A stretch of DNA of 64,000 nt, taken from NCBI GenBank assembly GCA_042571725.1, contig JBHPFN010000005.1:1196-65195 (forward strand), given 5' to 3'. This DNA comes from Candidatus Omnitrophota bacterium (GTDB lineage: Bacteria > Omnitrophota > Gorgyraeia > VGKH01 > JBHPFN01). The notes under the pieces were generated by a model. It was given only the letters and a program-made list of their open reading frames with translations, was not told the origin of the DNA and did no database searches. Made by a program: the position numbers and the translations under genes. Position 1 is the stretch's first letter. Every line of letters begins with the position of its first letter. This document shows, one piece after another, positions 3,001-45,000 of the stretch.

Positions 3001-6000
3001 GACACAATATAATTCACCTGAGGCGCTGCAGGCAGGGCTTGAGTTCTCAGTATTCCATCAGCTCAATCGCATTCTGAATCCGGAATTAGATCATGATCAG
3101 ATCCTTGAGCGCGACATCGCCTACTTCACAGAAGGATTAGAAAGAGTAGAAAAATATTTTTCAATGCTTACCAAAGATATTGGTAGTGTAAGGATGCATA
3201 AATTAGTTGAACGGCGAGGAATCAATGTCACAGATCCATTGCATCGACAAAATCTTCTCCTAAGATTGTTTGAATATAGAAATCCCCACAGGATCGATGT
3301 TGGGGATTACCACAGTCAACTGCGAGCCTCAATTCCAATACATATAATTCATGCGGTTTCAGTGCTCGGTGTGATTCTTAGCGATATCGATGGAACCTTT
3401 CTTGAAGAACCCACGGACGTGAAGCATTGTGCAAGCCTTGATTCCCGACCAGAAAGCGGCAAGGCCATGGACAGGCTCCTCTTAAGAGGTTTTTTCGTCG
3501 ATTTGATCACTGGCAACTGGTCTCGAAGAGCGTTCGGCAGAATTGTGCCGTATCTACGCAGGATTACTGTTGGGTCGCAAGCCCCTCAGGCAATAGAGAA
3601 TTTTTCTTATGCCGCAAACGGAGGATCTACACGATATCAATTTACTCACTACGGACTAGAAGAGGAAGACTTGGTGTTTAGAGCTGAGCAGGCAATCTTC
3701 CGGGAGGATGCAGAGGTTATCCTGGCAATCATTGATGAAGAAATTGAGAATTTTAGAAATGCATACGAACAAAATCCTCGGAGATGGCAAGCACGATATC
3801 CTGATTTTGTTTTCGAAGACGAACACGCAGAGTTTCAACCGCCTTTGGTAGAGCTTCGCGGATTACAGCAAGACGGTTCCATTACTCAGATCGCGGTGGT
3901 GTTGATTCCTTCTTGGTTTTTCTCAAGAGGACAGCTTACCGCTAAAAGTCCTGATGAGGAGCGCGAGCGATTTCTGCGCGAACTTAAGAGAAAGCTTGAC
4001 GCGCGGTTACCCGGCTGGAGAAGGCAATATAAGGTTAAGGCCGGAGGCGAGACATCTATCGACATCAATCGAGACGTCATCAGTAAGTGGAGAGCATTGT
4101 TCTATAAGATGAATCAACTTTCTCTATTTCTTAAGCAAGCGATTTATTTCGGCAATGAATTTCAGGCAGAAAGATCTACTTCCGAAAAATTGAGTCGTGG
4201 CGATACCGCGGTATTGAAAGGAAATATGTTTGCAGTTGCCGTAGACGATAGACAGGGTCAACCCGGATACGACGTTGATGAAATAGCCTTTATGGGAGGA
4301 CCCGGCATAGATCGAACCGTATACTGGTGGAATAAGATTTCTGATGTTTACGATAGAAACGTTGACGAGACAAGCGATGGACCCATTCGTCCTGCAATTG
4401 AAGTAGTAAAAGAAATGGTGCGCGCAAATGACAAAGAAGCCCGCGCAATAATTGCTGAATCCCGCGAAGGCGCTGGCAACGAAACACCTTCGATGTTCAC
4501 CGGCCTTAACATTTTCAGCGGAATAGATATTCTCAAACTACTTGGTCAGCTCTTCAGTTTACCGCTGGTATTAGGTGTGGCTTCCTCAGGAGGTGCAACA
4601 CCAGGCTCAAGGGGAAATCAGCGGTTCAGAGACGTGCAGAGAACACTGCGCAGAAGCATTTCACACCATAATCTTCCCTACGTAGACAGAAGTGACTTCA
4701 GAAATGATCCTCTGGGTATCTTAAGAAGCCGCATGGAGTTCTTCTTAAAGATCGACTCAGAACGACGCGCAGAACCATTGCGAGAATACCAGCGTTTTAT
4801 CGAACGACACCGCGAATTCAATAGAAGGTTATTAGGCGATGAAAGAGAAGAAGAATTCTACAATGCAGTGCAGTGGCTTCTCTCAGCACGATCAAAGAGT
4901 TCATACTTGCCTGAAGAAGTACTCGAGGTCCGCTATATCCAGATGTTTCACGCCAGAACCCTGGAAGACGAGATCTCCTGGCTCCAGCATGAGATGCCGG
5001 TATTAGACGAACATCTTGACCACGATGAACTATATGACGTAATCGACACTGCTATCAAGAAGTTACTTATTAAGGTAGGTATTATTGCCAACCGCTATGG
5101 TCCTTATTTAACTGATGCAGAGATCGATGAAAAAATAGAAGAGGACCTTGACCCGGTAAAGCAGGAACTGCGCATGATATTCGAACATGCGCTTATAGCA
5201 AGAGAAAATACACCCACAAGGATTGTTGAAGCGGGTGATACCACCGTACGCGACGGCGAGCAGTCTAACATCGGAACCACGGGTAAGATACGCCACCTGC
5301 TTCAAATCTTTAAGAAAGCCATTAAAACACTTATTGGTTTTCGTAAAGAGATCTGGGGCGGGGCTACCATTCAGAGTGTACTTTTGAATGGAGTACATAA
5401 GAATAAGCCGGAAGAGCCCTTTAACAACCTGCGCCGCTATGTAGAGCTTCTCAGTGATGAACTGCACGCGCTCGTTGATCCATTTGTACAAGCCACCCCA
5501 GGAGAAAGCGATATCAGTGAAGACGACCTTGCATTATTGTTCGATCGCTATGAAGTCAAAGAGGACAGACGCATCTTAACCAGAGAAGAATTAACCGATC
5601 TGCTATCCAAGTATCCTCGTATCGCCCCTGAGACCGCAATCGGTCAAAAGATTATCGCCCTCTACACCATCCGCCAAGAGATGCTCTTGCGCGGCCAGTA
5701 TATCGTAGGGCTCATTCCCTATCCTGACAGCTTCTTAGAACTGTTTGTAAAGGTTGCCTATAGAGACGGTATAGATACCTTCCGTATCTTTGACGCCTTT
5801 GATGATAACCGCAACATTGTTAAGGCAATTGAATACATCAGAAAGCTCAACGAGAAGGGTGCTACCGCATTCCTGCAGCCCTGCATTCACTACACCACCA
5901 ATTTCCCCAGAGGCAATGACGGGTTCGTTACCTTAGCCAAAGAGCTTATTGAGGCAAGCGGTGATGCGCTCGATGCGTTAGTAATCAAAGATGCCGGTGG

Positions 6001-9000
6001 CGTCTTAACACCACGAGCGGCGTATTATTTGATTAGGGCGTTACGCGAAAGCGGCATAACCGTACCGCTGTATCTGCATACCCACGATACACGCGGCAAC
6101 CGGCAGCTGGTCTTATTAGAGGCGATCCGCGCGAATGGTCCGGACTACCCGATTATTGTTGATGTTGCTATCGGAAAAGGCAATCTCTCCGCACCCTTTG
6201 CCCAGCCTGATATGAGAGACTTCTTCTCTCTTGTCGAGGGAACCAATTGGCAGGGAACCCTGGAGATAGACAAGGCCGCATTACTCGAAACCGAAGAACA
6301 GATCGACGAGATCATGCCTGACTATGTACGACCACCGGCGTTAGGCTGGCGCCTAAGAAAGAAGATCGCTGATGCAGGCCTACCGGGAGGCATGAAGACT
6401 AATTTTGATAGGCAGATCGCAGACAATCTACCGGGGGTCCAGAAGGCAATCAAAGAGAGATTCGGTATTACCCTCTATGAGGCTGAAGGTACATTAACTG
6501 TTGAGGGTACTGAGTTCGTAGAGGCCATAATGGATTTAGTCTATGAAGAGATACGCTGGGTTAAAAAGGATATGGGAGAGATCTCTCTGGTAACACCTAC
6601 AAGCCAATGGGTAGGAGATCAGGCATTTAAGAATGTTATGTATGTCTGGATGGGTAAGGGCTGGCTTGATCTAGAAACAACCGAAGAAGGTCGTCTGGTA
6701 CTTAAGAAAAACAATAGTTTCCCGCTTGAGAGAGTCAAGCAATACTATACCGCACCTCTGCACCCAGATCTTCAGAATTATCTGTTTATGTGGGCTCAGG
6801 ATGAGCATCTGCAGTGGTGGTATCCAGAGGTCGATCGCTCACTCGTCCTCAAGGCATTTGAACTGGTACTTAAAAATGACCATGACTTTGATCTGGAGGC
6901 GGTGAAACATGGTTTAGGTCTGAATGAGGCACACCCGGTTGCCGCAGTAGATATTGATATGATCAATCAGGCATTGGTAAACTATCAACCTATTAGAGAG
7001 GTCTTGGATAAGCGGGTAGTGGATGTTTCGGTGGTGAAGGTAAGAGACATCTTCCGACAGAAGGCTAATGAAGGGCTTTCCAGACACGACCCCAGATTTA
7101 CAGTAAAGTTTGAAGAGAGAGAAAAAGCGAATGCTGCATTCGGTTCCGGAGAATATCCGCGAGAGCTTATTATTGAATTTTCTTGGGGTGTAGAGGGGCT
7201 GAATCTGCCGCTTACCCCAGAGGAGCTACAGAGCCGCATCGGTGAATTCAAATTACGCTTCCCTACATTCGATGGCTCTGACGAACACTTATTACTCGCC
7301 GCACTCTTTACCCGACCTGACCAGACACCTAATCTGTTTAATAGTATGCAGGAGTGGCTTGATAGGCTTAGTCAGATAAGAGAGGCCAGAGCAGCACTAA
7401 TTGATATGGGTATTGACCCGGCGGTAATAGACCAAAAGATCCGTGAAGGCCTGCCAGAAGAAAGTTCCGACCCAGAGACCCCATCGATGTTCACCGCCAT
7501 TAATATTTTCGGTATGGGCTTAGGGATTGTGGCGGTTATTGCCGGAGCAATAGACTTTTTCTTCAATGGAAATGCATCTGCCGATACTCTCTTTGCAGCT
7601 GCATCGGTTGCGCCGCTATTGCCAGAAAGCAGAAAGCTTGTAAGTAAAGCGATAGAGAGAGATGGTGCACGATTACGATTCTTAGCTAGTCAGGAGACAG
7701 TTATCGCACTGCTTTCTACAAGAATCAAAACAAATGTCGATACAAACAGCATGTTTGCGCTGCTGCGCAACAATCCTTTGTTGCGTCGTACCTATATTCG
7801 CGTGTGGAACAGAGATATGGATCAGTTAAGAGAAGGTCTTACCGCAGATTCAATCGCGGGTGGTCGATTTGATCAAGAAACAAAGGAAAGAATTGCTAAG
7901 GAGTTCGGGGAGTGGCTTAAAGCAGTGATAAATTTGGCCCTAGAGTTCGAGCAAGGAGAATATGATCATACTGATCCTGCTTACTTTAGGCTGCTCGATC
8001 ATTTTGTTACCACTGCCCGCATCATATCGATGAATTTAACCGGCCAGCAAGACCAGGAAATCGCAGACTACTTAGGATATCCTTGGAAACATGTAGTCTA
8101 CTTCTATCAAAATATAAGAATCCATTTAAGAGAATTGCCTGTCGACAAGCTTGAATATTCTAAGCTTCAAGGATTAAGCCTGCTTGCTGAGAGAGGCATC
8201 ACTCAAAATGTTTTATCTGAAGAAACAAGAAGCGATATCGCATCGATGCTGGAGAGAAAAAGAGGCAGAGCTGCACCTGAAGCTGCAGCGTCAATGTTTA
8301 CCGGATTTCCATTGTTTGATATTTCCATTGTATTGAGCGCTCTCGCTGCTTTATTTATTTTTACCGAGAGGGAAGCGCTTCCTAAAGAATTACCTGCCTG
8401 CCGGCAGGCAGGGCGTATTAAATTACGTAATTTATCAAATATACCGTCGAGAAGATTAAAAACATTTGTGAATAATATGGGGTCGCTGCGGCCGACAGGC
8501 TCTGAGCAAGCCGATGATTCCGATTACCTCTCCGTGGCTGGTGGGGTTGGAATCAGCTTGGCCGCAGCACCCCCCTTAGTAAACAAGGGAGTGCGGCACT
8601 CACTATTTATCATGATGAGTGCAGCGGCCCTGACTTTATTCTTCCCAGACATAGCATTTGCTAAAGGGGAGATAGTACGCTCAGTTGAGGCAATCAGTGA
8701 AGGCCAAAGCTTCGTTTCTTTCCTCTATATAATGGCATCAATAGCGTTACTCTTTGGGTTGTCTGCGCTCTCAGGCCCGCCACGATGCATGACCACCGGC
8801 CAGCCTATCAGTAATTTACCCTTCCGCTGGGTTAACCGGATACGAGCGCTACAATTAGGAATGATTGCCCTTATCAACTATCTCTTCTTTGCGAATAATT
8901 GGCATACCGCTGGTGGCTTAGGCGACCCATTATGGATGTTCCATCCGGCTGATCCTGCGTCAATGTTCGGTGCGTTTAATTTAATGAGCGTAGTGCTTGT

Positions 9001-12000
9001 TGCGGCCTCGCTGGGAACGATGATCCCAATTGCCATTGATTATACACCGAGCCTCTTAAGAAAACTCACAAAACACCCATTGATTGAAACTCTTAGCCTG
9101 CCGATTCTCTTTATTGCCCTTATGGGGATCATCTTCTACAAAAGTCTCTTGCGCAGGTTTATTCCCATAGCCAAGACCACCGTTTTAGGCGTACTCATTG
9201 CCCTCAACTATCTATTCTTTGCCCATGGCGGGCACACCATTGAGCATGGAATGATACTACATCCATATCAGGATTGGAATGTGACTTACCCGCTTATCTT
9301 CGGTAAGTTTAATCTATTATCACTATGTATTGTCCTGCTCTCACTCATTGTTACGGGTGTGATGGTGGGAGAGGATATAGTCACCGCCCTTAAGAAACTC
9401 AAAAAACACCTTTCATTCAACACCTTCATCCTACTGGCTATCTTTGCTGCTCTTGCTGAATTCATATTCTCAGGCCAGGTGAATAATCCTGAGCTTTGCT
9501 TTGCCGCAGCACCAATTGGACCTAGAAAGTCGAAGGCGAAGGCAAAGAAGCCTTCACGTTCTACAGCTTCGTCATCCGGCGGCAGCAGGTCTTCGCGTCC
9601 CGCAAAAGTAGTGGCTAAGGTTGGGGTTACGATCAAAGTTGATACCTATGAGGTTACTGTGCGTCTTAAGCAAGGTAAATTAAGCGATGAAAACTTAGCT
9701 AATCTTGAGGAGGGATTGACATATCTTAGAAGGTTTTACCGCCATGACGCAGCGAAGATTAAAGAAGTAGTGGTGGTTAAAGGAGGGCGTGCGCCGCTTG
9801 AGGTTCAGGTAAAAAGCGGTAGATGGTCTGTGCCGGTGAGGGTCGAGGCATTTTCTGGACATCGCTACATTTTATCTTTGTGTTTAGGAAAACCGTTCTT
9901 GCGAAAACTAATTTATATCTATGCTCGTAAAAAAGAATATAAATATCGGCTTGGAGACTGTGTGTACCCTGCGGCGGTAGAGGTAGCCTTGATGTTTATG
10001 ATGGCATATCGTTTCCTCCTAGTTGACCCTCCTCAAGCGCACCAGGTTATTTTGGATTCTTTTAAAACTTCAGGATTCTCTCGATATCCCGTCAACAGAG
10101 GCATGGCTTCAATCTTAGAACAGGTAGAGAAAAAAGGCGGGTTCGGACTGATATTTGAAAGCCCTGAGATATTTAAGATGATACAAAGGATGTATCCCGG
10201 GGAAGATGTATCAGATAAAGACAGGATACGCAAGGATGCAAAAAGAATAGTGGTATTTATCCAGCAAGTTATTGATACAAGCAGAGAGACTGATATTGAG
10301 GCTATAAAGAAAGACTCTATCGCACCTCAAGATGTTGGAAAGCTTGTCTGGTGCGATGAGCGGGTGCGTGTCAGAAATCTGTACGTGCGCCAGTCAGAGA
10401 TATCCAGACACAGGGTAGAGGCAATGGTTGAGATGATGGATTTGCTTTCTGAGGTTACTAATGTCCCGGTGATAAAAGCCCCAATTGTCGTCTGGGGAAA
10501 TGACCCGGAGAAGAGACACCTCTGCTATTTAGTAGCCGGCAACACTACGGCAATGGCTGTTTTTGAATCAAATATAGCCTGGTGTCCTGTGCACATGGCC
10601 ATGCTTCCTGATGATTCTCCTACCATGAATCGTATACGTAATCCTCTCCATAGCGTATATGACGTCGATCGTGTAGATAGGATGAGGCTCGTAGGGAAAA
10701 GGTGGCGGAAAAAGAGGAGTTTAAGGCAGAGAAGTCAAGCTGAGAGGACAAGAAGTTTAAACAGAGCTACCAGAAAAAAAGGCCAAGCCAAGAGAAAAGG
10801 CTCAGGAGGGAAAGGTGATGTAAGCCTCTTTACCCTCTTTGGTTTCTTCCTGCCATTTACCAGCATTCTTACCTTACTTACCGCGCATCTTTTACCGTTT
10901 GTACTTGGCGTTTCACAATCTACAGATCAATCTTTGGAATTATCTCTCGGTAATCTTTTGATGCTTCAGGTCCATGCGCGAACCGAAGGTGCAAAGAAAA
11001 ATAAGAGAGACAAGGTAAAAAGCGGAGGATTTAAAGCAATTGAGGGACGACTAGAGGAATGGAAAGACCTTGGATTTAGCTGGGTGTATCTTATGGGCAT
11101 TATGCCGTTGAGTAAATTTTCAAGAAAAACAAACCGTGGAGAACGGGGAAGCCGCGATCGAAGAAATAATTGTTACCGGTTAAAGAAATGGGGAAAATCA
11201 GTAATCGTAGTCAACCAAGGGTGGCCGGGCGATCCCGAAAATGACATTGGTTCAATCTTTGCAATTCCTGAGCTGACTGCCGTAGGCAGCGATTTGGGCT
11301 CGCTCGATGATTTCAGAAAGGTAGTAGAAAAGGCGCATGACCCGGAATTGGATATGAAGATTATTATTGATTTCGTGGGCAACCATACTGCAATTGATCA
11401 CCCGTGGGTTTTAGAGCGCACAGAGTATTATAAGCACAGAGTTCTCTCGAGAGGAGAAGAAGATCGAAGTGATTTAGAGCTCCTGAGCAATAATCCTGGA
11501 TATTTCGTTGTGCATTCAAAGTCTTTAGGTAAAAGAGTGCTTGTTCAGCACGGTAGCGATCCTTCTTGTCCGCCACCGTGGTTAGATACCGCTGAATTAG
11601 ATTACAATAATCCTGAAGTCATACGAGAAATGATTGGCGTGCTGAAATTCTGGGCAGCACTTGGCGTGGATGGGGTACGCTGCGATTTGGTTACGCTTGT
11701 ACCTAAGGATTTTTGGGAACAGGCTATTGCAGAGATTAAGGCTGAATATCCTCGATTTACCTTTATTGCAGAGCACTATGGCCCAGAGGGAAGATATGTG
11801 AGGTTAGGGTTTGATTTTGAATATGATAAAACCCTCTATGAGCGCCTGCTGAAAGAAAGTTATCCAGAGCCGGGTATTAGAGATTGGCTGAATTTCTTGG
11901 GTAGGGCAAGAGCCTATCTTGACGGGTCAGTGCGCTTTCCGGGAAATCACGACGATGGTTGGTGGATGGCCGGAGCGCGCGCACGAGCCAATGCGCTTAT

Positions 12001-15000
12001 CGCCAGCACAATTCCGGGGATGTCAATGATGCACCTTGATCAGTTAGAGGGTTACGCGCGTCAGGGGATTACGAGGATTGTAAGAAGCGAAGCATCAGAT
12101 GAAGCACAAGCTGCATTTATGCAAAGAATTGCGCGTATTGCGAGCGACGAGATATTTAGCTACGGTAAGTTTGACGTCTTAGAGACAGACGATGGTAATT
12201 CAACCTTTATCGGGTATACGCTTCCCCATAAGGGGAGGCGGGTAGTAGTTGCGGTAAATTATTCCGATGGCTTTGGTGCGGCTAAGTTTTCAACGTTTCC
12301 TCCAAGGTTCGTTAACTCAGCATTTGCTGGTAAATATATAGTATTGAGAGATGTATTGAATGGAAAAGTGTATGTGAGAAACGCTAAAGAGATTATCACA
12401 GAAGGAATTTATGTCGAGCGCGGTGGTTTTGAGAGTCATATATTCTTTATCGAACCAATTTCTGATGAAGCCGGTACGTCATTGTCTGACAAATTTGGGT
12501 TAGACGCTATAAATCAATCAGTATTCGAAAGGGCTCTTGCAGAAGGCGCAAGCTCTGAAGCGAGTATGTTTGTGTTGCCTGATTTCTTAGGAGTTTCGTC
12601 TTTATATAATCAAATGGGGCCGCTGTGGCAAGGCATCAGAAAAATTCTTGTTTTACCTCTTCCGTGGCTGGTGGGGAGCAAGAATACTGCCACAGCGGCC
12701 CTTCGTTCGTTTACCTCTTCCGTGCCTGCCTGCCGCCTGCCTGCCGGTCAGGCAGGGCAGGCAGGGCTGGTGGGAACGATGGCCGCAGCGGCCCTATTAT
12801 TTACTCCGGGCATCGCTGAAGCAAATGAATTAGATCAATCTACATTTATTCTTGACATGCCTGGTGTTTCCCTAGAGATTACCTTAGTGCCGCTTCTCTT
12901 GCTTGCTATCGGTTTATTACTACTCGTAGGTGCTCTTCGGGAATTCAGAGGTCAGCTAAGATATCATGCAGCCCGAATTGACTTTTGGATATGGCGCCAC
13001 CTATTTCATACCGCAGGAGTTAATTTCTTAAGGCAAGAGAAAAAATTACAGAGCCTCGCAAGAGCATGGGGGCTCACAGATATTGATATCGTTCGATTAT
13101 ATGTAGAGACCTTGCCTGAGCAGTTGCCTGACTATTATGAATTTGACCTAAGAGTTGCATTGCAGGATTTATATGAACATTTTGAAGAAATTCCTCAATA
13201 TTTATTCGGTAAATACCGAATGTTGGGCGAAATGGGAGGCGAGGTGAGTCTGGCCGGAGAAATCAGTCGCTTAGCATTCCAGGGCGTTAGCACGAAATAC
13301 ACAACAGCAGAGGCAATGGCGTGTGATTTCTTAGCTCGCTATCCTCAACTTCAGAATTATATTCCTAAAGATTTTATGCGCCGAGCCCTGAAGCAATACC
13401 CAGGCATCGAGGAAATTCCCGGAGTCTTGCGGCATTGTTTGCGTTCTGCGCTTATTGCTTTGGAATTTACAAAGCTTATGGATTTGCGACCTCGGTATTT
13501 CAGAGAGGCTCTAGTAAAAGCATTCTTTTTACACGACCTAGGAAAGGCGCACGAGAGCCTAAGAGGTACCGCAGCCTCACCGATAATGGTAGAAGAACTT
13601 GAATATGCTAGAGCAAATCAGGAGCATCCACATAAAACGATCGCGATGCTTAAGAAAAAGGTTCGATTAAGTAGCAATGTGAAAGCGGCAAAACTTATTA
13701 CTTATTTAATCGAGCATCACGAAGAAACACCTTCGTGGAAAGTAGGACACGCAAAGGATGTACGAGCATATGCTGCGCGCATCTTCTCTTTAATCGATAC
13801 CCTCGATTCCTTGCGTGATTGCCGAAGACCGCATATGCGAAGAGGAGGTCATTTCCTTTCAGTAGATGATTTGCTCGATATTCACTACAGACTTCTTTTA
13901 AGAGACGGCTCAATCGATAGAGAGATGTTCGAAGCGATTAGGGAGCTTTGCTACCGTGAGCCGGTGAGATCCTTATTAAGAGAAACTGAGCCCTATGTCA
14001 GCCTTAGTAACGTGGTGATGTTGGCAACGGGTGTTGAAGAGATGGCTCAGCGTTGCATTCCTTACTCTCGGCCCGCCACGGGAACGGCTATTCGATTACT
14101 TACCCGTCCGCTTGCAGAATTTAGCACGCGCTTTCGCCGTGACGGAAACTTCCCTGACAGTATCCACTACAGAAAAGGCCGCACCGGCCAGGTTGTTAAA
14201 GCGACGAGACTTGATCCTCTTCTATTAAGGAAGATGGGGGTCAGTATTTGTAGGGGAGAACTAGCTGATGACCGTGAACAGGCAGAGTATTATCAGTTAC
14301 GCAGAGAGTTTACCGCATTTGCCATCGAGCGGCGTTGCAGCAATCCTGATCAGCCTGAGAATGTAATTGAGATAGAAGAGCTTTTAGGCCAGAGTCAAGA
14401 GGAGCGAGAGGTATTTATTACTTGTTTAGTAGAGTACCAAAGCATTTTAGAGCATTATGCTCCTGAAAGGGCAAAGGCCTTGGCACTTTTGTATAAGCCC
14501 CTCTTTTTCCCCGATGAAGAAATGGAAGCAGAGTTGTTCTGGGATAACTTCGGCCCGCGAAAGAGATTAATCGTAGAGCCGCTCTCAAGAGAGGCATTGC
14601 GCGGTCATCTACGAGCAGTACCGACATCTGATACGACCTGTTCAGGCAAGACTACCACAGCACTGAGTCAAGTGCGGCAGCGTCCTGACTTGTTTGGTTT
14701 AATCGTAATCAAAAATGGCAAACCCGAACTGAGCCCGTTCTTTATGGATAACTTCTTTAAGAATAAAATGAAAGCGGGAACACCAAAAACGCCGGAGAAC
14801 GAAAACGAATCCTTCCCGGATATATACGGCCGGCACGATATTGATTCTCCGGATGCCTACCGGTGGGATTTGATTGAAGAGGCACTCACCAATTTATTCT
14901 TATACGGCAGGGCAATGATTCCATCAGACTATGATTTTGTACATAAGCATCGCGGCGAACTTATAGAGGCAACGCTCGAGCCGAATAAGGCCTTGCCCAT

Positions 15001-18000
15001 TGACGGTATTTATGCGGGACATCCGAGGATGCGAGCAATCCTTGAGAGAATTAAACATAGATACGAAACTGAACATTATTCTCCGATGCGAGATGCATTG
15101 ATGAAAATGAAGTCTAGCAACGGGGCACCGTTTAAACCTCGCTTCGAATACAAGTCTGTGTTGCTCGTTTGTGAACCTAGAATCGGGATTCTGCAGCATT
15201 TGTTCGGATGGCTTTTACCTCATATCGATGATGCCAGGCTTGTACGCAGGATCGTAAGAAAAAGAGGTTCTACCGCATTTAATACTATGGATATATGGTT
15301 TGATCCTGATCCTTTTGCAGGAATTTTAGTCATTGAGAAAAAGGACGTGGAACCCCACAGAAAGTATGCAGACATAGTAGTTAATACTCTGGTCAAGAGA
15401 GAGATCCCTCGTCAGAAAGAAAAGCTCTGGCCAGAGCTTGATGAAGCAGAGCGTGATTTCGCAGTGGAGCTTACACTAAGAGGATACTTTCCGCACGCGC
15501 AAGACATACGCGATGCGATTGACCGGCTGCGCATGAAAGCCGAATCCCGCGGCTGGCATGACGATTTGCGCATCTGGCTTATTGGCATACGCAATAAATT
15601 CACACGCGTAAAGGTCTTTGGCGTCGTTATGCTTGCCACCCTCCTTTTTGCTACCCCCGCCATTGCCGATGACGCAACAACTACCTTCAACTTGAAACCT
15701 TTCATAGGGATTTTGATGGCCGCAGGAACTATCGTTTTGATGCTAATCCCGAGATACCAAAGTATAATAAGATCTTTCGACAGAGGTTGGCGAGCTACAC
15801 GATTAATCAGCGAATTTCGTGCCTGCAGGCTTCACATAGTAAAAGATAGCTCAGGCGGCATAGAAGTAGTTGATGACGCAGGAATGCCACGATTTATCTC
15901 TGCGGTTGAGCTACTTGTGGAAATGAAACATGCTGGAAGATTTGAGGTTTTAACTAAGCTGCGTGTTTTCTGTAACGTATTAGATGAGTATCCTGCAGGA
16001 AGCCTTCCGCATCAATGGCATACCAGACTCTCAAATGCAATAGCAGCTATTGAGGAGGATATTGTATCTGAATCTATACTTCCTGGCTCAACAGATGGTG
16101 GCGAGGCAGGCTCTAAGGGCTCACCAGCAAACTTCCTTATGCCGTTTATTGTAATTGTCAGTAGCCTGTTGTTTGTCACCCCCGTCTTTGCAGAGACCGG
16201 CATAGAGAAACTCTACCATTCAATCATAGCTCAACTTTCAACATTTATTTCTTATCATGCTGATGCCCATTTCTGGTTATCAGTGCTTACATGGACTGGA
16301 ATGCTTACAGCGAGCACTATACTATTGGCAATATTGATGGGCATCGCAAGAGGTCTAGAAGAATGCACTGGGATTACGGTATTCAAATATCAAATGGAAG
16401 GATTGGGAAGTGATCCTGGTATTATTGGTACCATGTGGAGTGGTTTGTGGTTTTTAGGATTTTGGGCACTTATTATATTGAAGGAAGACAACGAAACTTT
16501 ATTTCATTGGTGTATTGCGCTTCCATTCTTTACGGTTATAGCTGGCGGCGGTATTGTGTTTCTGATAGCAGCAGGAACATGTGTTTTTATTGGCTTTGCA
16601 TTTATGATAGTTGCGAGCCTGCCGTGTTCTTTAACGGTAATCATGTATCGCGTAGGACGCAAGATTATATCTTTTGTTGTGGATGATTTTATTCCATTTG
16701 TTGAGGACGACTTAATTCCAATATTTTTAATCATAGGTAACGGAATATTCGTTCTTGCCTTGCGAATATTCGTTCCTTCGGCTTGGCGTCAAAAGAGAGC
16801 TGAAAAAGCCATTGCGCAAATTAAGAAGTTTGATAAGAACTGGATTGTAGTTTATGGTGATTCCAAAGATGGGTTCTCGGTAATGAGTGAGGGAGGAGCG
16901 CCAAGATTCGTCCACGAGGCAGAAATTCTTGCAAAATTCAGGCATCCTGGAAGATTTGATGTGTTACCGAAATTGCGAACGGTGCTTGCGGTACTGCCGC
17001 CTGAGGTAAGAAATACCGGGACAAGGCAGGAAGCTGGTATTAATCCTTTGGGAACGAAAGTGTATAGCGTGCATACCAGGCTTTCTAGGGCAATAGCTAC
17101 TATTGAGGCTGATTCAGATTCGGCAGATTCTAGAGCAGCCCTTTTTGGAGCTCCTCAAGGCGAATTGAATTTAGTAGAGTTAGGCTTATTGTCTCCTGAA
17201 CACAGGGCAGCAGGTGGCATATCCGGTGAGGGTAGACATAGAATCCCTAAGCATCTCGCGCAACGCATCCTTCCTATCCTTCAAGCTTACCTTAGAACCC
17301 CCCGGACCTCAGAAGACCTACCTCAACTTAAACAGGAAATTAGAGAAATATTGCTTAGCTACTGGACCATGGTTGAAGGAAAGAAGCTTCCGCAGACCAT
17401 GCTAGGCATTTGCAACCTACCTGAAGTTGGTCCGGTATTAGCAGAATTTGATACCTTAAAAGCCTTTGTCACGGATAAATTCTATCCTAGATCAGTTATT
17501 GTTGAATTTACTTCTATCGGCATCTGTGCCAGCGATAAGGAAAATATAGTGAATCCTTTTGGTGTTGACCATCCCATGGCTGGTGTGCCTTTAGGCCACG
17601 AAGCAGGAGGTATTGTTGTAGGTGTTGGTCCGGGAGCGGATAAGTCTTTATTAGGAAAATATGTAGCCTTAGAATCGCACACTCCTCACAATTGGAGCAG
17701 ACCATGGCATAGATCTAAAACATACGGGATTATCGGGTATGACCCGCTGGGAGGACCAAAGGTAGCAGGCACCTGGAGACAGTTTGGCTGTTTCCCTGAA
17801 GCAAATGTCTATGTGGTTTCGGATGAACTGAGAAGTAATTTAAGCGACAGGTTGTCTCTGCTTGAGCCCAATGGCAATGCGGTATATACCGTGCTTGAGA
17901 CCGCCAATCTCCTTAAGGAAAAAAGGATTGATCCTCAAGGCGCTCACGGTATTATCGTCGGATTAGGCCCTCAGGGACGGATGATGCTGTATATGGCTCA

Positions 18001-21000
18001 GCTTATGGGCATAAATGTAATCGGCGCTGATAAGTTCGAGGCAAGTGTGAGAAAGTGCATCGACGCCGGTATCGGGGATGAGAAAACAGTATTGAGTACA
18101 GAAAAGCCTGGCTGGCAAGATAGAATTCAAGAAGTCTTTGGCGAGGACAAAAAAGCTCAGTTTATACTCGATGCCTGTGGAGCCACAGGGGTAATTAAGG
18201 ATATGGAAGGACTTCTTGAAAATAATGGTTTGTTCCTCTTGTTTGGCTTGATGGATAAAGAGCAGGGAATTCCTGATACTAGTAAGTCACTAGGCGAGTT
18301 TGTCTTGAAGCAACATAAGAAGCTTCGTGCTCGCGTTAAAGGAAGAACTATTGATATCATCGGCCTTTGCGGTAGATCGGATGAATCGTGGCACTGGGTT
18401 GTAGAGGAGCTGAGGAAAACGGATAGTAAGTTTGCAGAACTTTTACTTTCCGGAGTGTATGATTTAGGCTCTATTGAAGGGTTTGTGAGAACGCTCTTTG
18501 CATACAATGATTACAGTAGGGATGCTTTTGAGTCTCTATTTGGAAAAGGCAAGATTACTATGCTTCCATTCTCCGCAGCGTTAGTCGAGGCCTTCCGGAA
18601 TAACGATGCGAATGAGGTTGCTAAAATAGTATTCCCTCAAGAAATTCCTTTCAGTAGAAGATTTGACATTGTGGATGTGCAAGACCAATTCCCTCGAGCC
18701 CCTGTGCTTAGAGTTTTCGCTCCTATAGAAAAAGCCGATAGCAAAATAGGTGTAGCGAGTTCGCTGTTGGGAGCGATATCAACATTTACATCTTTATTCG
18801 GTTTTGGTATGCCGCTGGGTGTAGCAGCAGATGCAGGGGGCAGGAATATCGAAGTATCCGCAGAGCTTGCGATTAGCCGTTATAAAGCACTGCTCGAAGG
18901 TCAGGCTGGAGAGGTTCTTTTAGAAGCAAAGCTCAGATTGTTTTACCAAACGTGGCGCGGTGTTGGCCTTACACCTCCTGCAGGGATACGCTATGTCTTC
19001 TGGGCACTGTTAGGAGATAGAAATCATCCTATGGCAGAGATGGTATTGCGGCATCATCCTCATTTTGATTCGTTGTCAGTAAGAGAAAAATGCGATGCGA
19101 TCGATGCATTAGTAGCCGCAGAACAATTGAACTACGGTTCAATAGAAGAAATTAGACTTCTAAGTTTGGTTATCAGAGGCTTTGCTGCTGATGCGGCCGA
19201 AGGAGAAGTAGCGAACTTTGTTTCAATCGGTTTTGGCAGCATGCTTCCTTTAGGCAAGATTTTTGGATTGATTGCATTCTTGCTTCTTGCACTAACCCCG
19301 ATCGCACAAGCTGATTCCTTGCCGGAAAACAATATCGCCACACAACAAACTAGCACTGATACAAGCGCAACATCTACTCGATCATACACGCGGGTTATCC
19401 ATCCACAGTCAGATCAAGAATATTATTTCTATGAAATACGCAATAAGATAGAACAGAAAGTAGCAGAGGCATACGAGGCGCGTAGGACAAGAGCGTATTG
19501 GGAGAATGTAGAATTAGCAGCTTTGCTTTGGATTGAGCATGTAATCAAGCAGAGAGAATTAGATAATATACTGGTAAGCCTTGTGGATGCGCGTGTACTC
19601 ACCGAAGAATTTTTAGCCTCCCCGGATGCAGAGCGTATTTTGTCTAAACAAGAAGAATTTTTAAGAAGTCGAGAAGCATACGTGGCTATGGAGAGGGCAG
19701 GAGACGTTGACAGCCTCGCACAGAGACGGTTATCCAGAACCGTCCGTCTCAGAGTTCATGATTCTACCGTAGTGAAGCCGCAGGAAATCGATAGCTTAGC
19801 AGCGGTAGCCGATAGTATTCTTGATACGTATCTGGCTGCTACCTGGGTATATCTCGAAGCAGGCGATCCTGAGAAGAAAAAGCAAGAGTTTCTTGCTGAG
19901 CTAATATCCTCAGCGTGTGAATTTTACGGTCGGCCTCTGCCGCCGGCAGATAAAGGATACACACCCGTTGAGCGGATTAAGACTCAAGAAGTAGACGATA
20001 AAAATGATGCTCAACAACCAGAGCCGCAGCCTCGCAACAATCCGCCAATTCCCCCTAAATCCGGCATGGTAGGTTTGTTGTTTGGTAGAATGCTGTCTTC
20101 CTTGCGGCGTAGAAAAAGAGTTTCTAAGCGCGACAGTCAAGTAGCTGAGCCTAAGCAGGTCGCTAAAGGAGCACCACATTTTATTTTAGCCAAAAAGGAA
20201 GCGCTTCCGTCGGGAAGCAGCATTTTTAATCTGAAAGTTGCAATAAGTTTATTGACTTTAGGAATAACAGGACTATTATATAAATTAGGGCTGCTGTGGT
20301 ATGATCTTACGCAGATCATAACTTCGATTACCTCTTCCGTGGCTGGTGGGGTTGAAGTTATTATGACCACAGCAGCCCTATTTGTTTTGCCTATCGCATC
20401 TGAGGTTTCTGACCTCTTCCGTGCCTGCCTGCCGGCAGGCAGGGCTGGTGGGGTTAAAATCACTATAGTTGCAGCGGCCCTCTATTCTTTCTTAATACCT
20501 CTAATAGGGACGTTTCTGACTGCAATCGGAAAACTGTCCCTCGCGGGGACACACTTAGCTTTGATGTCAGAAACGTCCCTAAGAGAGGTAGTAACCTTTT
20601 CTTTCCTCACCCCTGGCCTTGTCTTAGGGGTTTCCGCAGGAAACGATATTTCCGCAAACCATTCAATGGTAACAGTCACTTCACTTTCCGAATTAAGGGA
20701 ACTGTTTGTATCAGGCCGCATCGGTAGACCCGAATGGAAAAGGCTGCTTGATCGCAATCCCCACGGCAAGGAAATTGTGGCAGGGATTCTTGTTGAACTC
20801 ACCAGAAGAGTTACCAAAAAAGAAGATGAACCGTTAGAATTCGCTGACTTTATGCAACTGCGTGACCCTCATTTTAGAGATGCATGGGTAGGCGGACACA
20901 ACCTTTCCGGTTTGCGAGGGGTATTCGACAAAAAATCAGCCGGCAGCGGCAAACCATCGATCGTATTCGGGCTTGAATACACCGGTCTTATAGCGGCGCA

Positions 21001-27000: not shown

Positions 27001-30000
27001 CTTTGGAAACGAGGCCCTAAAGGGTTGCTCACCGCAAACAGTGCAGCACTCACCATCTGACACGATGAGTGCAGCGAGTGCTGCGGCTCCCGCATCTGAA
27101 CCAGCAGGATCTCTCGGCAATGTTCAAGAAGGCATGCATGAATTGTCGGCTGCTGACTTTGAACCTTCAACGGATCAGCAGCATGAACGTTCTGAATTTT
27201 TAAAGCAATTAATGCATAATTATGCCACTCATTACCCGCTTGTCACGCAGGAAGTTGATTCGCCGGAATTTAATGAATTTCTTACTGAGCGGCGCGCAAC
27301 GATGCAGCAAGGAATTAGAGACGGCTCGGGAGCGGTCATGCTGTATCGTCATCCAGGTGAATCTACCCTTGGAGGATTTATCTTCTTTGTCCATGATTCA
27401 GTACAGGAAGGGTTAGAGGTAGTGGTAGATTTATGGGTCAGTACAGAGATAGAGCAAGAAGAAAGAAACTTAATCATCGCGGCTCTTTTAACAAAGGCTA
27501 TGGAAACTGCACGTGTTCAGGGTCAAAGATATTTTGAAATATATGTTCTGCCTGACGATACGCAGCTGCAGCAGGTAGCTGGTCGCTTTGGGTTTGGGCA
27601 GGGAAGAAGCTACCTTGATCAGTCTGGAAATTTATTTTTGATTGCATATCGTAAAGCAATTAGTTCTCCGTTAACCGAAGAGCGCGCAGCCGATAGGACT
27701 CAAGAAGCTCAGGAGCCGCCTGAGCTTAATCGCTTAGGTTCTATTATTACGGTGCTTGATCCCTCAATTCCTGCGGTAGTGGTACCCGCGCGGTTGGCGA
27801 GTACGCTGGAGGCTGTATTTGGAAATCCACAGGTGGCAATGACCGCAGAGGAGTTCTGGGACTTTATGCAGCATTTACGCACAACCGGCGCATTGCCAGA
27901 ACTCTATAGTATCATATCCGAGGGTCATCAAGCTGCGCAAGAGGTCAGAGAAGAGCTGGCGCGTTGCGAAGGATTAGACGCGATAGAGCAAGAGGACCTG
28001 CTAGGTTCTGCGTATGGAGTTTTTGTCTGGCTTGCCGAGGTAGCCTGGAAGCATACGCTTAATCAGAGACCAGATCTGCGCAGACGCTTATCCGGATCGG
28101 CTACTGACTTTATTGCTCATCTCCCGGAGCATAATCACGTGACAGCGAGGCTGCTAGAAAGAGCGGGGATTTCTCCTCTTTTCTCAGTGGACGAGGCTCA
28201 CTTCTTTTTTCTCCCGTATGTGTTTCCTTTTATGATTGAGGATAATGAAACTTTCAGCGTACGCACTATGTTCTTCAGAAGCACTGAGGAGTCTGTACGC
28301 ACAGGAATGAATTTATTATTTGAGGCTGACGGTGCTTCGCAAAGACCTATTGCAGCCGAGATGTTCGAGACATTCCGTACGCTGCAGCGTGCCGTCTTAT
28401 CCCGTTTTCAGGGAAGCTATAGCGCTGAGTATCGGGAAGAAATGGATGCGTTGCTGCGCAAAATGGCGAAGAATATTGCACTGTTGCGCAACAGGGGAAA
28501 TCAGCCACCTGATGAGCCGCATACTCCAGATTCGCCACGTGGCGGGCCACAGGCTAATTCTCCGGTCTGGATAACCATCTTAGCTGTATTAGTTGGGCTA
28601 GCGATGTATTATCTTGCGGGCGGATCTTCAACTGAAGAGGCGCCACAGGTTTTGATGGGCTTGTCACTTTTCGGTGTAGGCTTAACTCACGGCGACCTTC
28701 CACCATGGCTGGTGAGACTTTTAAAGAAACTTAAGGTAACCGATGATTTGAATGGCACAAAGATATTCCGCGGGGAAATTTCTGCATGGGCAAAGGCCCA
28801 CGGTTTATTCTTAGACCAACCGTGGTATCGCGATGTGCGAGAACATGGCTTATATCTGAGAACGCGGGAAGATGCTTTGCGGCTCTGGACGCTAAGGAGA
28901 ATTGAAACCTATATTCTTGATTACGCTAGAGAAATCGATCGGGAAGCAACAACAAAAAGATGGATGGAGAGTTTAAAGGCAGCGGCACTCAGAGACAGCG
29001 CGCAGATACGCCAGAGGCTGCGAAGAGAACAATTATCTCTCACAGAAGAAAGGCGTGTAAAACGAGCATATCATAACATTCAGAAGAAATATCTTTGCGG
29101 CTTACGGGGCCCGCATCATGGAAGAGAAGCTACTGACGCGCCGTTTATCTGGGCGTTAAAGGGAAGAGTATTTAAGCAGGTACAGCAGAAAAGGGCCGGT
29201 AAGCTTTTTGGCGAAATAGATATAACCGATATGACATTAGCTGATCTTCCTATCTGGCCGGTAGAAGGAGGTAGGATTAGAGAAGATTTGATTGAGTGGA
29301 TGGCAGAGAGAGAAGGTGCGCCTCCTGCGCAATATTATGCAGCGCGCAAACTCTCCATTAATCAAATCCTACAAGAAGAACCCCCGGCCGGCCAACTCGA
29401 ATTACCTTTCGGCAAAACAATCATTCCTTTCATAGTTACAGTACTTTCCGGCGGCATAAGTATGCCGCTTGGGGCAGCGGTAGAGGGTGGAGAATCTGAT
29501 GTCCGTCCATCTTTGTCTCCTATCGAGGATACAGTTACTAGAGACCTTAATAAAGATAATGTAGTGTTAGTCGGATTAGCAGACGAAAGGCTTGCTTTTG
29601 CCGGTGAGACAGCCGGAATCAATGCAATAGCCGGTTATCTAAACCGTGATTGCAAAGATGCAGAGGTTACAATTTTAGACATGCAGCTGGATTCTTTGGA
29701 AGATGTTATAGAGACAATAAGAACAAAGAAACCCGCCATATTGGGTATCGCCGCCAGGATTAATACATTTAACCAATTGCTACAGTTGACTCAGGCAATA
29801 GCAAAGGAGATTCCTCAGGAAGAACAGCCACTTATCGTGCTCGGAAACGCCTTGCCTACTTACATAGGCGATGTGATTCTACAGCGATTCTTGCCTTTTG
29901 CTGTGCTTGGTCTAGGAGAAGGCGAATTGGTAGTAGCTGATCTCTATCGGTATGTGAATGGGCAGATTGAACTATCCGAGGTACGAAATATTGCCTATCA

Positions 30001-42000: not shown

Positions 42001-45000
42001 TGCACAACGTCTGGATGCAGGTGTTCCGAGAGAAGATAGGCGATGGGGAGAATGGGCGTCGTTTGGTTCTGTGGGCAGTCTAGTAACACGCGAGCAGGAA
42101 AGCTGGTTTAGAGGCGATGGCTCAACATTCGTTGAAACAGAAGAGAAAGAAACCGCAGACTCTCCAGAGAAAGCCACAGCTATTCAGGAAATCCGCGAAG
42201 CATTAGGTGCTACGATAGAGGCTTTAGACAGATTAGGGTCATCATTCCCTCATGAAGATAACTATTGGCCCCTTAGAGATCGTCTAGAAACGCTTTATGC
42301 TCGGCATGCGAGTGTGCTTTCACCTGCGCAAGAAGAATTTCTTAAGCATATAATCACCTTACTGCTTGGTTCAACTATGCCAGCTGAGATAGCCAAAGAA
42401 ATCAGGGATCAACTTGAACCTTTTTCGCAAGACACTATCGGAGTTAAAAAAGCCGCTGCCCCCGAACAGAAAGCCGCAGCCATCCGGGAAATCCGTGAAA
42501 CATTATACGCTGCTGAAGAGATTTTGCGAGGACTAGGATCTCCCCGCGAAGGTACCTATCGTCGCCTTAGGAACATCCTAGAATTGGTTTACCAACGGCA
42601 TGTAAGCGTGCTTTCACCTGAGCAAAGAGAATTTCTTGAGCAAGTAATCACATTACTACTTAGCTTGACTATGCCAGACGAAATAATCAGATATATCAGG
42701 GATCATCTTACACTCTTTTCTAAAGAGGCTGAAAAAGGAGCGCTTGCCCCGACACCACCGTCGGAATCAGCCCCGACACCGGAGGCATCAGACGAAGACA
42801 TATCTTCTTTAACTCCTCTGGAGAGAATCGAAAAAATAGTAGTGGCAATTAAAGGAAATATAGACAGTTTCCATAAAAAGCTGGGGAACCCTCAAGCAGC
42901 ATTCGAGGAGCTCGATGCCGCAATGGGACAGTGGTATACTCTCGATCCGTTAATACAGGAAGAAGGGTTGACAACTGAAGAGGCCATCGCTGCTTGTATG
43001 GGAGACGAGCTTCGACGCAAAGCCGGTCTTGGCCTACGTCAATTAGCAGACGTACAAGCCAACCTAAGAGGTATTCGCAAAAAAGGCGCATTAAGCGCGG
43101 ATCCAGACCGTTTAGAAGAAGCAATACCAATATATGAAGCTGCATTGTTGTTTAGGCCAATGGAAGATCATAGCTCACGAGCTGACATTAATGCGCATCT
43201 TGGCGAGGTAAGAGCCGCACTTGAAGCATACACGCAACCCCATAGAGCAATTCAGGACGGACTAGGTCGGCTGCATGCTTCGACGGATAGGCTTCAAGGT
43301 GCCTTCAGAGATGTGGTTGGATTAGGCCGGGAAGAGCGTCAAGTCTCGGCTCTTAGCCAAGAGGCTATATGGGCTGTTGAAGACGAATTATCATATCTAA
43401 ACCGTTGTTTGAGAGTATTCCGTCAATACCCTGATGAGGATTGGGAGCTTACGGATGCCGAAGTAGCAGGAAAGAGGATTCTGGAGAAAATACAAATGGA
43501 GGATGATGGCTATCACGATTTGTCTTCATCGCTAAGAGACTATGTGGTTGAAGCGTTTTATAGTTTAGGCCGTGCATTGTGCGGAGATTTTACATGGTTT
43601 GATGAAATAACAGACAGAATAGAGATGGAAACGGAGCCATATAGCGAAGGAGAACTTGATAATTTAGAAAAGGCATATGAATATTTTGGACATGTAGTAA
43701 GACTTGCAACTTCTGGGGATAGTAAAAGAGATGCTGAGCTTGCCATGGACCAGATTAAGATAGTTCTTAGAAAGCTCAGGCCGCGTAGTAAAATTTTAGC
43801 TGATGATGAACCGCCGGCAGACCCGACCCCAACGCCACCGTCGGGACCGGCTCCAGGATCTTTCTTAGGAGTAGGAGGAGGAGCTGCCTCAGCGGCATTG
43901 GATGACTTACTTGAAGAAGAGGGGTCTGCTCCGCACCAAGAAGATGCGGGACCTGCTGCGTCGGCTGGCGAAGTGCAAGAAGACACAGGGCCAGCGGCTA
44001 CGCCGACTGGCGAAGTGCCTGCTACGTCGACCGAAGCCGACCCGGCTGGGGAAGCTCGAGCATTATTAATACGTGTCAGAGACACTTTACAATCATTAGA
44101 GAGGTATGATTACGACACCTATGCTCGACTAGGGCAAGAAATAATAAGTTTCCGTGATGCTCATTCTGGTTTGTTGACAGCGGGACAGCTTGAGGTCTTG
44201 AAGCAAGTGAGTACAGACTTGCGTTTCGATGAACCAGAGTCTTCCATAGTAGGGTATATCGATGGCAACCTTGATCGCTTTCCAGAAGCAGTAGTTTCTG
44301 AGTCTGAACCCGAAAGCGAACCAGGAGAGACTGTTGTTGTTCAAACAGGGCAACCCGACAAGCTTCTTACTGCTATCTTTGGTCAACCTACTTTTGCTGA
44401 AGCGGCTGAAGAAGGGCCGGTTGCTGATGCATCTATAGAGGAGCCTTCGGCCGAGGCTGAGTCAGCAGAAGAAGCACCACCAGCTTCGCCTCGCGACATT
44501 ATGTTCGCCTCACAGGATGTAAACGGATATCTACGCTCAGCAGAAGAAGAGATTGAGGCGCAGCACTACGATGACGCAGAGGGGACTTTAGATTCTGCAA
44601 GAAGAGCCCTTGGACGTTTACGAGAGATGGATGAAACACACCGGTCAATAGCCGGATATGAAACAAGGATTGCAGCCTGTGCTGCGGATATTAGTGCGGG
44701 CCAGGATAGACTCGCTGAATATGATTCAGGTGGAACTGCAGATGACGAATCAGATGATGCAGCGCTCTCCGGCATAGAAGCAACGATCGTAGAAATAGCA
44801 GAGGCAATCGAGGAGAATGTGCAGCTTTTCCGAGACCATCTATCAGGCAATCGGGGAGAAGCCCGTGGCTATCTTGATTTGGCAATGTCCCAGCGGCGCA
44901 GGCTTGTTGATTTTATGCGCCAGGAAGGTCTACAGAGCGAACAAGATATTGCCCGCGAGATAAGAGGAAGCATTCGAGGAAGGATGACTAACGCCTTACG

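Follow-up and report, generated by a model that had tools for sequence, protein, structure and literature searches.

A recurrent motif in a giant reading frame

What is a 22-nucleotide (nt) sequence doing in all three reading phases of one giant open reading frame (ORF)? The question is raised by a 64,000-nt stretch of contig JBHPFN010000005.1 from a Candidatus Omnitrophota bacterium (hereafter the window), whose plus strand is a single stop-free frame from nt 2, more than 21,333 codons long and running off both ends. The exact 22-mer, ACCTCTTCCGTGGCTGGTGGGG, begins at positions 12655 and 20330, with no occurrence expected in shuffles of the window. A third copy, one T shorter, occupies 8526–8546, and two further copies are split, one (12713–12724 plus 12766–12775) by a 41-nt palindrome and the other (20412–20423 plus 20444–20453) by a 20-nt palindrome. 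Both palindromes are positioned exactly at CCGTG^GCTGG, the caret marking the junction. Taken by position (8526, 12655, 12713, 20330, and 20412; left halves for the split copies), the five lie in phases 1, 2, 0, 0, and 1 relative to the ORF and read YLSVAGGV, LPLPWLVG, TSSV..LVG, TSSVAGGV, and DLFR..AGGV. These five positions, the peptide readings in all three phases, the identical palindrome point, and the only overlapping pair of plus-strand ORFs in the window (12625–12819 with 12648–12833) had all been reported in an earlier note on this DNA, and our reading of the sequence bears each of them out. A covariance-model scan of the window with filters off returned no sixth copy.

The motif is the apex of a covarying hairpin

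The earlier note overlooked the main point: a covarying hairpin carries the motif as its loop. The intact copies are flanked by inverted repeats (GGGCCGCTGTGGCA/TGCCACAGCGGCCC, GGGCTGCTGTGGT/ACCACAGCAGCCC, and GGGGTCGCTGCGGCC/GGCCGCAGCACCCCC), and because these arms differ between copies in a compensatory way, the motif is placed at the apex of a hairpin. The motif hairpins and the palindrome-bearing second hairpins fold at −47 to −60 kcal/mol per 100 nt, compared with a window mean of −21.7 ± 5.6, and they rank with the most stable local folds of the 64 kb. The element is 60–100 nt long and comprises an outer stem (P1), an internal loop that is A/U-rich on its 5′ side, an inner stem (P2), a 5′ bulge of 2–4 nt, and the apex. 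This architecture is the same in every Omnitrophota-type match, with a P1 of 7–14 bp and a P2 of 6–8 bp of variable sequence below a conserved apex. Within the apical module, ACCUCUUCCGUGGCUGGUGGGG, CCUC can pair with GGGG and CC with GG, enclosing a GUGGCU hexaloop.

We searched the window and 29 loci from metagenome-assembled genomes (MAGs) that contain an exact copy with a covariance model (R1), which yielded 39 copies, divergent ones included. Among these aligned copies, pair changes on both sides fill 131 cells versus 57 ± 6 in shuffles, and 81% of cells are paired versus 46–59% when the partners are slid. Double changes occur in all 14 pairs of P1 and P2, and one divergent copy replaces C-G by U-A within the apical CCUC/GGGG helix itself. 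Copies found only by the model retain (U)CCGUGGCUGGUGG, and the 5′ part of the motif varies among them. The outer stems covary, and the motif is the nearly invariant apex of a three-stem hairpin. The loop sequence CCGUGG (e.g., window 12663–12668) is self-complementary as RNA, forming four G-C and two G·U pairs, and two loops could kiss through it; as double-stranded DNA it is not palindromic.

Copies in other genomes

A pattern scan of one genome per species, using ACCTCTTCCGTG-N(0–30)-GCTGGTGGG, returned 31 gap-free matches, 30 of them in 23 MAGs and one in an unrelated GC-rich bin without a hairpin. The 23 MAGs comprise 14 labeled Candidatus Omnitrophota and 9 Planctomycetia/Planctomycetales, and chance alone would give ≈0.3 exact 21-nt matches. 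The gapped matches found in other phyla lack a hairpin and look like chance; two matches in viral contigs, both GC-rich, are likewise without a hairpin. One copy was reached independently of the motif: a protein-homology match to the window (P0002, 7,953 amino acids) led to contig L052, which carries a single sense-strand hairpin with the exact 22-mer.

Rfam 15 gave no match at E ≤ 1 for eight hairpin-carrying loci and, for the window, only two subthreshold chance microRNA matches, both on palindromes. Literature searches on Omnitrophota giant genes, on RNA motifs in Omnitrophota, and on the motif sequence returned no description of the element. By keyword, “hairpin” and “palindrome” are absent from both Nielsen & Lui (10.64898/2026.06.07.730766) and West-Roberts (10.1101/2023.11.21.568195), and “stem-loop” is absent from the former; in these keyword searches, neither text named a nucleotide-level element within giant genes. 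The hairpin is a candidate new RNA/DNA motif for Rfam-type curation.

Placement, strand, and reading phase

The exact copies lie predominantly inside coding frames: 26 of 30 are in same-strand frames without a stop from one end of the fetched locus to the other (up to 2,666 codons, truncated at both ends), and the other four lie between co-directional genes (the flanking pairs are GGDEF/PilZ+permease, sigma-like/Opp permeases, and AbiEii/MNT-HepT). All 39 model matches are on the sense strand and none is antisense. In the window and in loci L021, L037, and L013, the hairpins fall between Pfam domains, and no Pfam domain was found at hairpin sites. No in-ORF copy interrupts the frame in which it resides, and the loop peptides of the exact copies in giant ORFs are TSSVAGG (17 copies), LFRGWWG (5 copies), and PLPWLVG (4 copies). 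The proposal in the earlier note that the motif is kept as nucleotides rather than as a peptide therefore holds beyond the window, since exact copies across genomes encode three unrelated peptides.

These data bear directly on whether the element is a protein-level module (a conserved peptide, transmembrane, or signal-anchor segment), its nucleotide similarity being secondary, or mere GC-rich low-complexity sequence. In favor of a module, the P1 arms in the window fall in one phase in all three clusters (M/L-G-x-L-W ... T/A-A-A-L) and are followed by signal-peptide-like hydrophobic stretches. A peptide repeat or protein domain, however, would use one phase and conserve its peptide, and here the same 22-mer is read in three phases as three peptides on stems that covary as nucleotides. 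Within a single subfamily, the copies at L010 and L046 are offset by a 1-nt indel that shifts the frame and leaves nucleotide similarity unaffected, and peptides downstream at other loci are not consistently hydrophobic. Low complexity is countered by the absence of expected matches in window shuffles. We regard both versions as very improbable, and the use of all three phases effectively refutes the protein module.

The dimensions of the element point the same way. The hairpins in the window span 81, 72, and 78 nt, and the clusters in which they lie span 152, 179, and 194 nt, each cluster length being 2 modulo 3. Indels inside a unit change the phase of its loop and are compensated before the unit ends. 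The preserved codon phase at both ends, together with the open frame, argues against removal of the element before translation, and the shifting interior phase shows that its interior is under no peptide constraint. As judged from sequence, the element is probably translated through rather than removed. A selenocysteine insertion sequence, a frameshift stimulator, a bypass element, and an intron were each considered and rejected, as there is no in-frame stop and the element is open and in phase. By eye, no slippery site was noticed in three window copies, although no systematic scan was made. At some loci, a strong Shine-Dalgarno-like sequence plus ATG (AAGGAGGTTTGGGATG, GGAAAGGAGGCATTATG) stands just after the hairpin with the giant frame still open (L039, minus strand, ≈6930–6950; L047, ≈4355–4375; L016, minus strand, ≈1600–1625), which hints that translation starts internally or that these are remnants of earlier gene starts.

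A further claim of the earlier note, that motif plus palindrome is free of stops in all six frames and that a mobile element needs this property to sit in a giant ORF, is not supported on closer inspection. The copy with the 41-nt palindrome has one reverse-frame stop. The 22-mer contains one A, at its 5′ end, and so cannot hold a stop on either strand; the property is automatic. Whole elements are stop-poor rather than stop-free: 13, 15, and 5 of 33 are open in one, two, and three sense frames, compared with 76%, 23%, and 1% of background. Because antisense copies are absent among the 39 model matches, reverse frames are never used, and because an antisense orientation would leave at least one frame open in 26 of the 33 elements, stops cannot explain why all copies are sense.

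Dispersal and insertion at the apex

Some units carry a leader of 35–60 nt outside the hairpin, upstream of arms that are inverted repeats differing between copies by compensatory change. Copies that share stems and leader are 60–90% identical over the element, and beyond about ±60 nt their flanks fall to the random level of ≈35–40%; in translated flanks, too, homology ends with the element. Within one MAG, contigs L025 and L031 have a unit of ≈105 nt in common at ≈90% identity, and a unit of ≈130 nt is common to six MAGs. The only orthologous pairs are L039/L047, L011/L030, and in part L032/L044, and the element is present in both members of each. Similar copies in unrelated flanks identify a dispersed repeat rather than orthologous conservation.

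Whole copies are also nested. In three other MAGs (loci L041, L039, and L003), the loop of an outer motif encloses an entire hairpin element that has a motif of its own, and each composite folds as one long hairpin. The junction of the nested element is CCGTG^G in L041 and L039, the same phosphodiester at which the palindromes of the window are placed; in L003 it is nearby, its exact place uncertain within a few bases. In L039 and L041, the inner element carries terminal inverted repeats of 13–14 nt (CYCCGTTRGAAA... / ...TTTCYAACGGGG) and is bracketed by CGTG...CGTG in the former and CGTG...CATG in the latter. Insertions of palindromes and of entire additional copies thus recur at the apex CCGTG^GCTGG, which appears to be a hot spot of breakage and joining.

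In the window itself, a single composite unit is present twice, as clusters 2 and 3, consisting of a P1 5′ arm, a motif hairpin, a 3′ arm, a second hairpin, and a second 3′ arm. The palindrome may therefore have entered only once, so that of the two palindrome insertions in the earlier note the shared point stands, but the two may represent a single event. The 20-nt palindrome pattern has 6 matches in the window versus 0.02 expected by chance. The perfect palindrome, CCTGCCTGCCGGCAGGCAGG, is present in three copies plus one 41-nt expanded form, two of them solo and two in hairpin loops, and their phases differ. It is absent from all other fetched loci, which marks it as specific to the genome of the window, and it has the look of a second mini-element, with arms similar to P1 stems found in other genomes (GGGCAGG/CCTGCCC) but in swapped order. 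In each of the three clusters (8480–8631, 12617–12795, and 20288–20481), one P1 5′ arm can pair with either of two downstream 3′ arms, with the second through G·U wobbles, so that a cluster has a choice of folds with one or both inner hairpins inside.

Folding as RNA or DNA

We compared the folding of the two strands, taking random windows from the same loci as background. The sense strand folds better in 33 of 37 elements versus 75% of random windows, with a mean sense advantage of 8.8 kcal/mol for elements and 3.5 kcal/mol for random windows. G·U pairs make up 14% of sense and 6% of antisense pairs in elements, versus 16% and 11% in random windows. Since background windows also favor the sense strand, G·U pairs are weakened as proof of a fold at the RNA level.

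A rival explanation is that the hairpin is a host cis-acting RNA signal that punctuates giant and polycistronic transcripts between modules and has a conserved protein or RNA as its binding partner. It could block 3′-exonucleases, mark a site of processing, terminate transcription in a translation-dependent manner, or serve antitermination or membrane targeting. The sense orientation of all 39 model matches, which stops cannot explain, agrees with such a signal, as do the placement of copies between genes or domains, the invariance of the apical core across very divergent genomes, the greater stability of the G·U-containing stems on the sense strand, and the T-run after one subfamily. The distribution, however, is irregular, with three clusters in the first 20 kb of the window and none in the next 44 kb, and both complete chromosomes in the pattern scan hold only one exact copy each. 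T-runs (at least 5 T in the first 9 nt after the hairpin) are modestly enriched, in 24% of copies versus 11% of background; nested and tandem copies and genome-specific subfamilies look like the proliferation of a repeat; and the strand asymmetry is partly background. We consider a cis-acting RNA signal possible but distinctly less probable than the dispersed repeat set out below, with which it is compatible, the two not being exclusive.

A third explanation holds that the element is an independent small RNA gene under its own promoter and terminator, whose CU-rich, anti-Shine-Dalgarno-like loop (ACCUCUUCC) would pair with ribosome-binding sites of target mRNAs. It draws on the L010-type subfamily (L010, L013, L022, L032, L044, and L046; alignment A4), which combines a conserved leader of 55–60 nt, GGTATAAT placed 8–9 nt ahead of the hairpin, and a T-run behind it. 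Promoter-like sites also precede two hairpins of the window (Table 1): the best one in a 13-kb region (TTGACT-16-TATTAT) stops 8 nt short of hairpin 3, and a second stops 3 nt short of hairpin 1; two intergenic copies elsewhere precede Opp/Dpp-type permease genes. Yet −10-like boxes (at least 5 of 6 positions) accompany only 18% of copies (6% of background), the T-run is consistent only in the L010-type subfamily, and these, at the frequencies found, are features of some subfamilies. Independent genes would need neither the sense orientation nor the open frame, and we judge a small RNA gene unlikely. A promoter-hairpin-terminator unit as a general feature was likewise rejected, −10 boxes and T-runs being limited to certain subfamilies. 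The L010-type subfamily is nonetheless a complete look-alike of such a unit within open giant frames.

Comparison with known systems

The hairpin can be set beside several families of structured repeats. Rickettsia palindromic elements (RPE) are palindromic repeats of ≈100 nt that lie in frame in protein-coding genes and are translated, with copies in noncoding DNA too. Our element resembles them in behavior, being a hairpin of ≈100 nt inserted in frame in ORFs, translated as extra peptide, and present in noncoding copies as well; the likeness is one of behavior and not of sequence membership. It differs in belonging to another phylum, in its near-invariant 22-nt apex on covarying stems, in the uniform sense orientation, and in its giant multi-enzyme hosts. 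The Rickettsia elements were reportedly described by Ogata et al. in 2000, and we know of no sequence relation between them and the Omnitrophota hairpin.

Repetitive extragenic palindromic (REP) sequences are 20–40 nt long, extragenic, found in both orientations, species-specific in sequence, marked by a 5′ GTAG-type tetranucleotide, and associated with RAYT transposases (HUH, IS200/IS605-like). Repeats of the REP type, together with palindrome-associated transposable elements (PATE) and miniature inverted-repeat transposable elements (MITE), are recognized as folded single strands and can stabilize upstream mRNA. Our element is akin to REP sequences and their mosaics (bacterial interspersed mosaic elements, BIME) and to PATE and MITE derived from IS200/IS605 in being a short, structured, dispersed, multicopy repeat that also occurs between operon genes, and like MITE it has multiple similar copies at nonhomologous sites. 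It departs from REP sequences in its length of 60–100 nt, its conserved loop in place of a 5′ tetranucleotide, and the location of 26 of 30 exact copies within ORFs, and neither RAYT nor TnpA is linked to it.

The recognition sites of HUH Rep proteins, at the origins of circular Rep-encoding single-stranded (CRESS) DNA viruses and rolling-circle plasmids, place a conserved loop on a variable stem and are broken and joined at a fixed phosphodiester in the loop. The conserved loop, covarying stems, and fixed joining point of our element are similar. Here, however, neither a replicon nor a Rep gene is in the context, there are many copies per chromosome, and cleavage at CCGTG^G is deduced only from junctions. 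The attC sites of integrons are strand-specific and conserved in structure, with R and L boxes and extrahelical bases conserved at the base of the stem, where recombination occurs, and with a variable loop. Our hairpins, too, are structure-conserved and strand-specific and stand between functional modules that share one orientation, but their stem bases vary (GGGUUGCGGCAGG, GGGCAGG, GGGCCGCUG, and others), their loop is conserved, and insertions are apical; no integrase or attI was seen. Intrinsic terminators and mRNA-stabilizing stem-loops share the strong GC-based sense hairpins between genes and, in one subfamily, the U-tract. They differ from an element with a large conserved apical module that lies within continuous ORFs and in which U-tracts are not general.

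Explanations and their weighing

Any explanation has to accommodate a covarying hairpin that is dispersed, exclusively sense, and translated in frame in three phases. On balance, and by a modest margin over even chances, we favor a dispersed REP/MITE-like hairpin element, comparable to RPE, that is tolerated in frame in the linkers between domains. Copies would land or duplicate between functional modules, either in the intergenic spacers of operons or in the inter-domain linkers of giant genes, and would persist only where the frame stays open, giving arbitrary peptides in whichever phase. Propagation would take place at the DNA level, through an enzyme that recognizes single-stranded DNA in its folded form and breaks and rejoins it within the loop, much as HUH-type enzymes do. 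Recognition by that enzyme, or by another conserved factor, could account for the invariance of the loop, and the sense bias might arise because long genes run in the direction of replication or because the hairpin has a further role in mRNA.

Several observations weigh against this preference. No duplication flanks the copies or palindromes of the window, and no clear target-site duplication was found anywhere; the CGTG...CRTG brackets of the nested copies may be a 4-bp target duplication or simply an extension of the stem. No transposase was found in the fetched loci, which are almost entirely giant ORFs, and empty sites, sought via close relatives of the window in protein, metagenome, and HMMER searches, did not turn up. 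Similar copies in nonhomologous flanks and nested copies nevertheless make it probable that the element is mobile, as the earlier note proposed. The evidence for a sense-strand RNA fold is only moderate. The exact-match search fixes the invariance of the apex by construction, and the apical core is identical among genomes whose enzymes are only ≈30% identical to anything in databases. For a selfish repeat such constancy is unusual, and it points to either a host function or horizontal spread. The identical apex across divergent genomes and the strictly sense orientation keep a host RNA function in play.

We also entertain, as a bolder and rather doubtful reading, that the hairpin is a punctuation mark of Omnitrophota giant genes, a conserved signal at module boundaries whose apex is cut and rejoined by a dedicated enzyme so that modules are shuffled in frame, and whose mRNA copy is read by a conserved factor. 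If this were true, modules would be captured, shuffled, or nested in frame in an integron-like manner but within one ORF, the hairpin in an mRNA of more than 64 kb would control processing, termination, or stability, and the assembly and expression of multi-enzyme ORFs of 10^4–10^5 codons would be explained.

A structured repeat with a nearly invariant apex that recurs in more than 20 genomes and uses all three phases gives direct evidence of information at the nucleic acid level in the linkers of giant ORFs and is a rare bacterial case outside Rickettsia of palindromic repeats translated in frame. It offers a handle on how giant genes grow, for instance through insertion or accretion at hairpins, and on how transcripts of 64 kb or more are handled.

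Features of the window and its host gene

The coordinates of the hairpins, palindromes, and host frame are collected in Table 1.

Table 1 Hairpin clusters, palindromes, and host frame of the window
Feature	Position	Strand	Details
Hairpin 1	8479–8574	+	P1 arms 8479–8493 and 8560–8574; inverted repeat I11; inner stem GAUUCCGA/UUGGAAUC; apex 8526–8546, one T shorter; model score 42.7 bits; −47 kcal/mol, one of the most stable 100-nt windows in the 64 kb
Cluster 1, second part	8590–8631	+	Distinct small hairpin, then second P1 3′-arm copy GCAGCGGCCCT at 8621–8631
Hairpin 2	12617–12701	+	P1 GGGCCGCUGUGGCA/UGCCACAGCGGCCC; exact motif 12655–12676, read LPLPWLVG; inverted repeat I7, 100% complementary over 14 nt; model score 45.5 bits
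Hairpin 2b	12702–12795	+	Motif split by 41-nt palindrome 12725–12765; second P1 3′ arm 12782–12795; −59.6 kcal/mol, most stable 100-nt window of the whole sequence
Hairpin 3	20283–20383	+	P1 GGGCUGCUGUGGU/ACCACAGCAGCCC, compensatory relative to hairpin 2; exact motif 20330–20351, read TSSVAGGV; inverted repeat I3; model score 56.4 bits
Hairpin 3b	20395–20482	+	Motif split by perfect 20-nt palindrome CCTGCCTGCCGGCAGGCAGG at 20424–20443; second P1 3′ arm 20469–20481; model score 19.6 bits, E = 5e-4
Long imperfect inverted repeat I1	20492–20594	+	103 nt, 49-nt arms, 76% complementary, −50.8 kcal/mol; directly follows cluster 3; without motif
Solo 20-nt palindrome	8393–8412	+	Direct repeat D6; 67 nt upstream of hairpin 1
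Solo 20-nt palindrome	46563–46582	+	Direct repeat D6, 95% over 22 nt; remote from motif hairpins
Host frame	2–64000	+	0 stops, codon-position GC, Pfam domains, transmembrane-like segments

The host of the window copies is a multi-enzyme giant gene. Its frame has GC contents of 0.56, 0.41, and 0.42 at the first, second, and third codon positions, a pattern that identifies it as coding, and its Pfam domains represent many unrelated enzymes, including Pro_dh, PfkB, Radical_SAM, PALP, ADH, Metallophos, HD, and alpha-amylase. It also contains 59 hydrophobic, transmembrane-like segments. ORFs of this type fit the “multi-enzyme metabolic cluster” class of Omnitrophota giant proteins (Nielsen & Lui, 10.64898/2026.06.07.730766) as well as the giant genes of West-Roberts et al. 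(10.1101/2023.11.21.568195). Omnitrophota giant genes, described only recently, reach 147,155 codons.

The giant ORF is almost without database relatives. A database search with the product of window 11702–14401 (900 amino acids, with the HD domain) found no protein homologue, and a segment of L047 across a hairpin had no protein match; the Pro_dh segment of the window had one, at 30% identity. A metagenome scan for related loci gave one weak match, to the amylase domain, and HMMER against 1.84 billion representatives gave two weak matches over a stretch of 50–90 amino acids, in only the domain upstream of cluster 2. The lineage of the window appears to be very poorly sampled.

The window also contains other repeats. 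The small hairpin of cluster 1 (AGTGCRGCACTCA...TGAGTGCAGCG) recurs 18 kb away as direct repeat D18, 8590–8626 being 84% identical to 27040–27076. Direct-repeat families D2, D3, D9, and D10 occupy 51200–59300 (e.g., 51218, 58568, and 59177, with spacings of 609 nt), and the direct repeats in this 3′ third of the window suggest repeated protein modules. A repeat spaced by 294 nt lies at 42254/42548. The segment at 43951–44050, with 68% GC, folds strongly at −48.8 kcal/mol, contains an internal repeat, CGGCTGGCGAAGTGC, and is unrelated to the motif.

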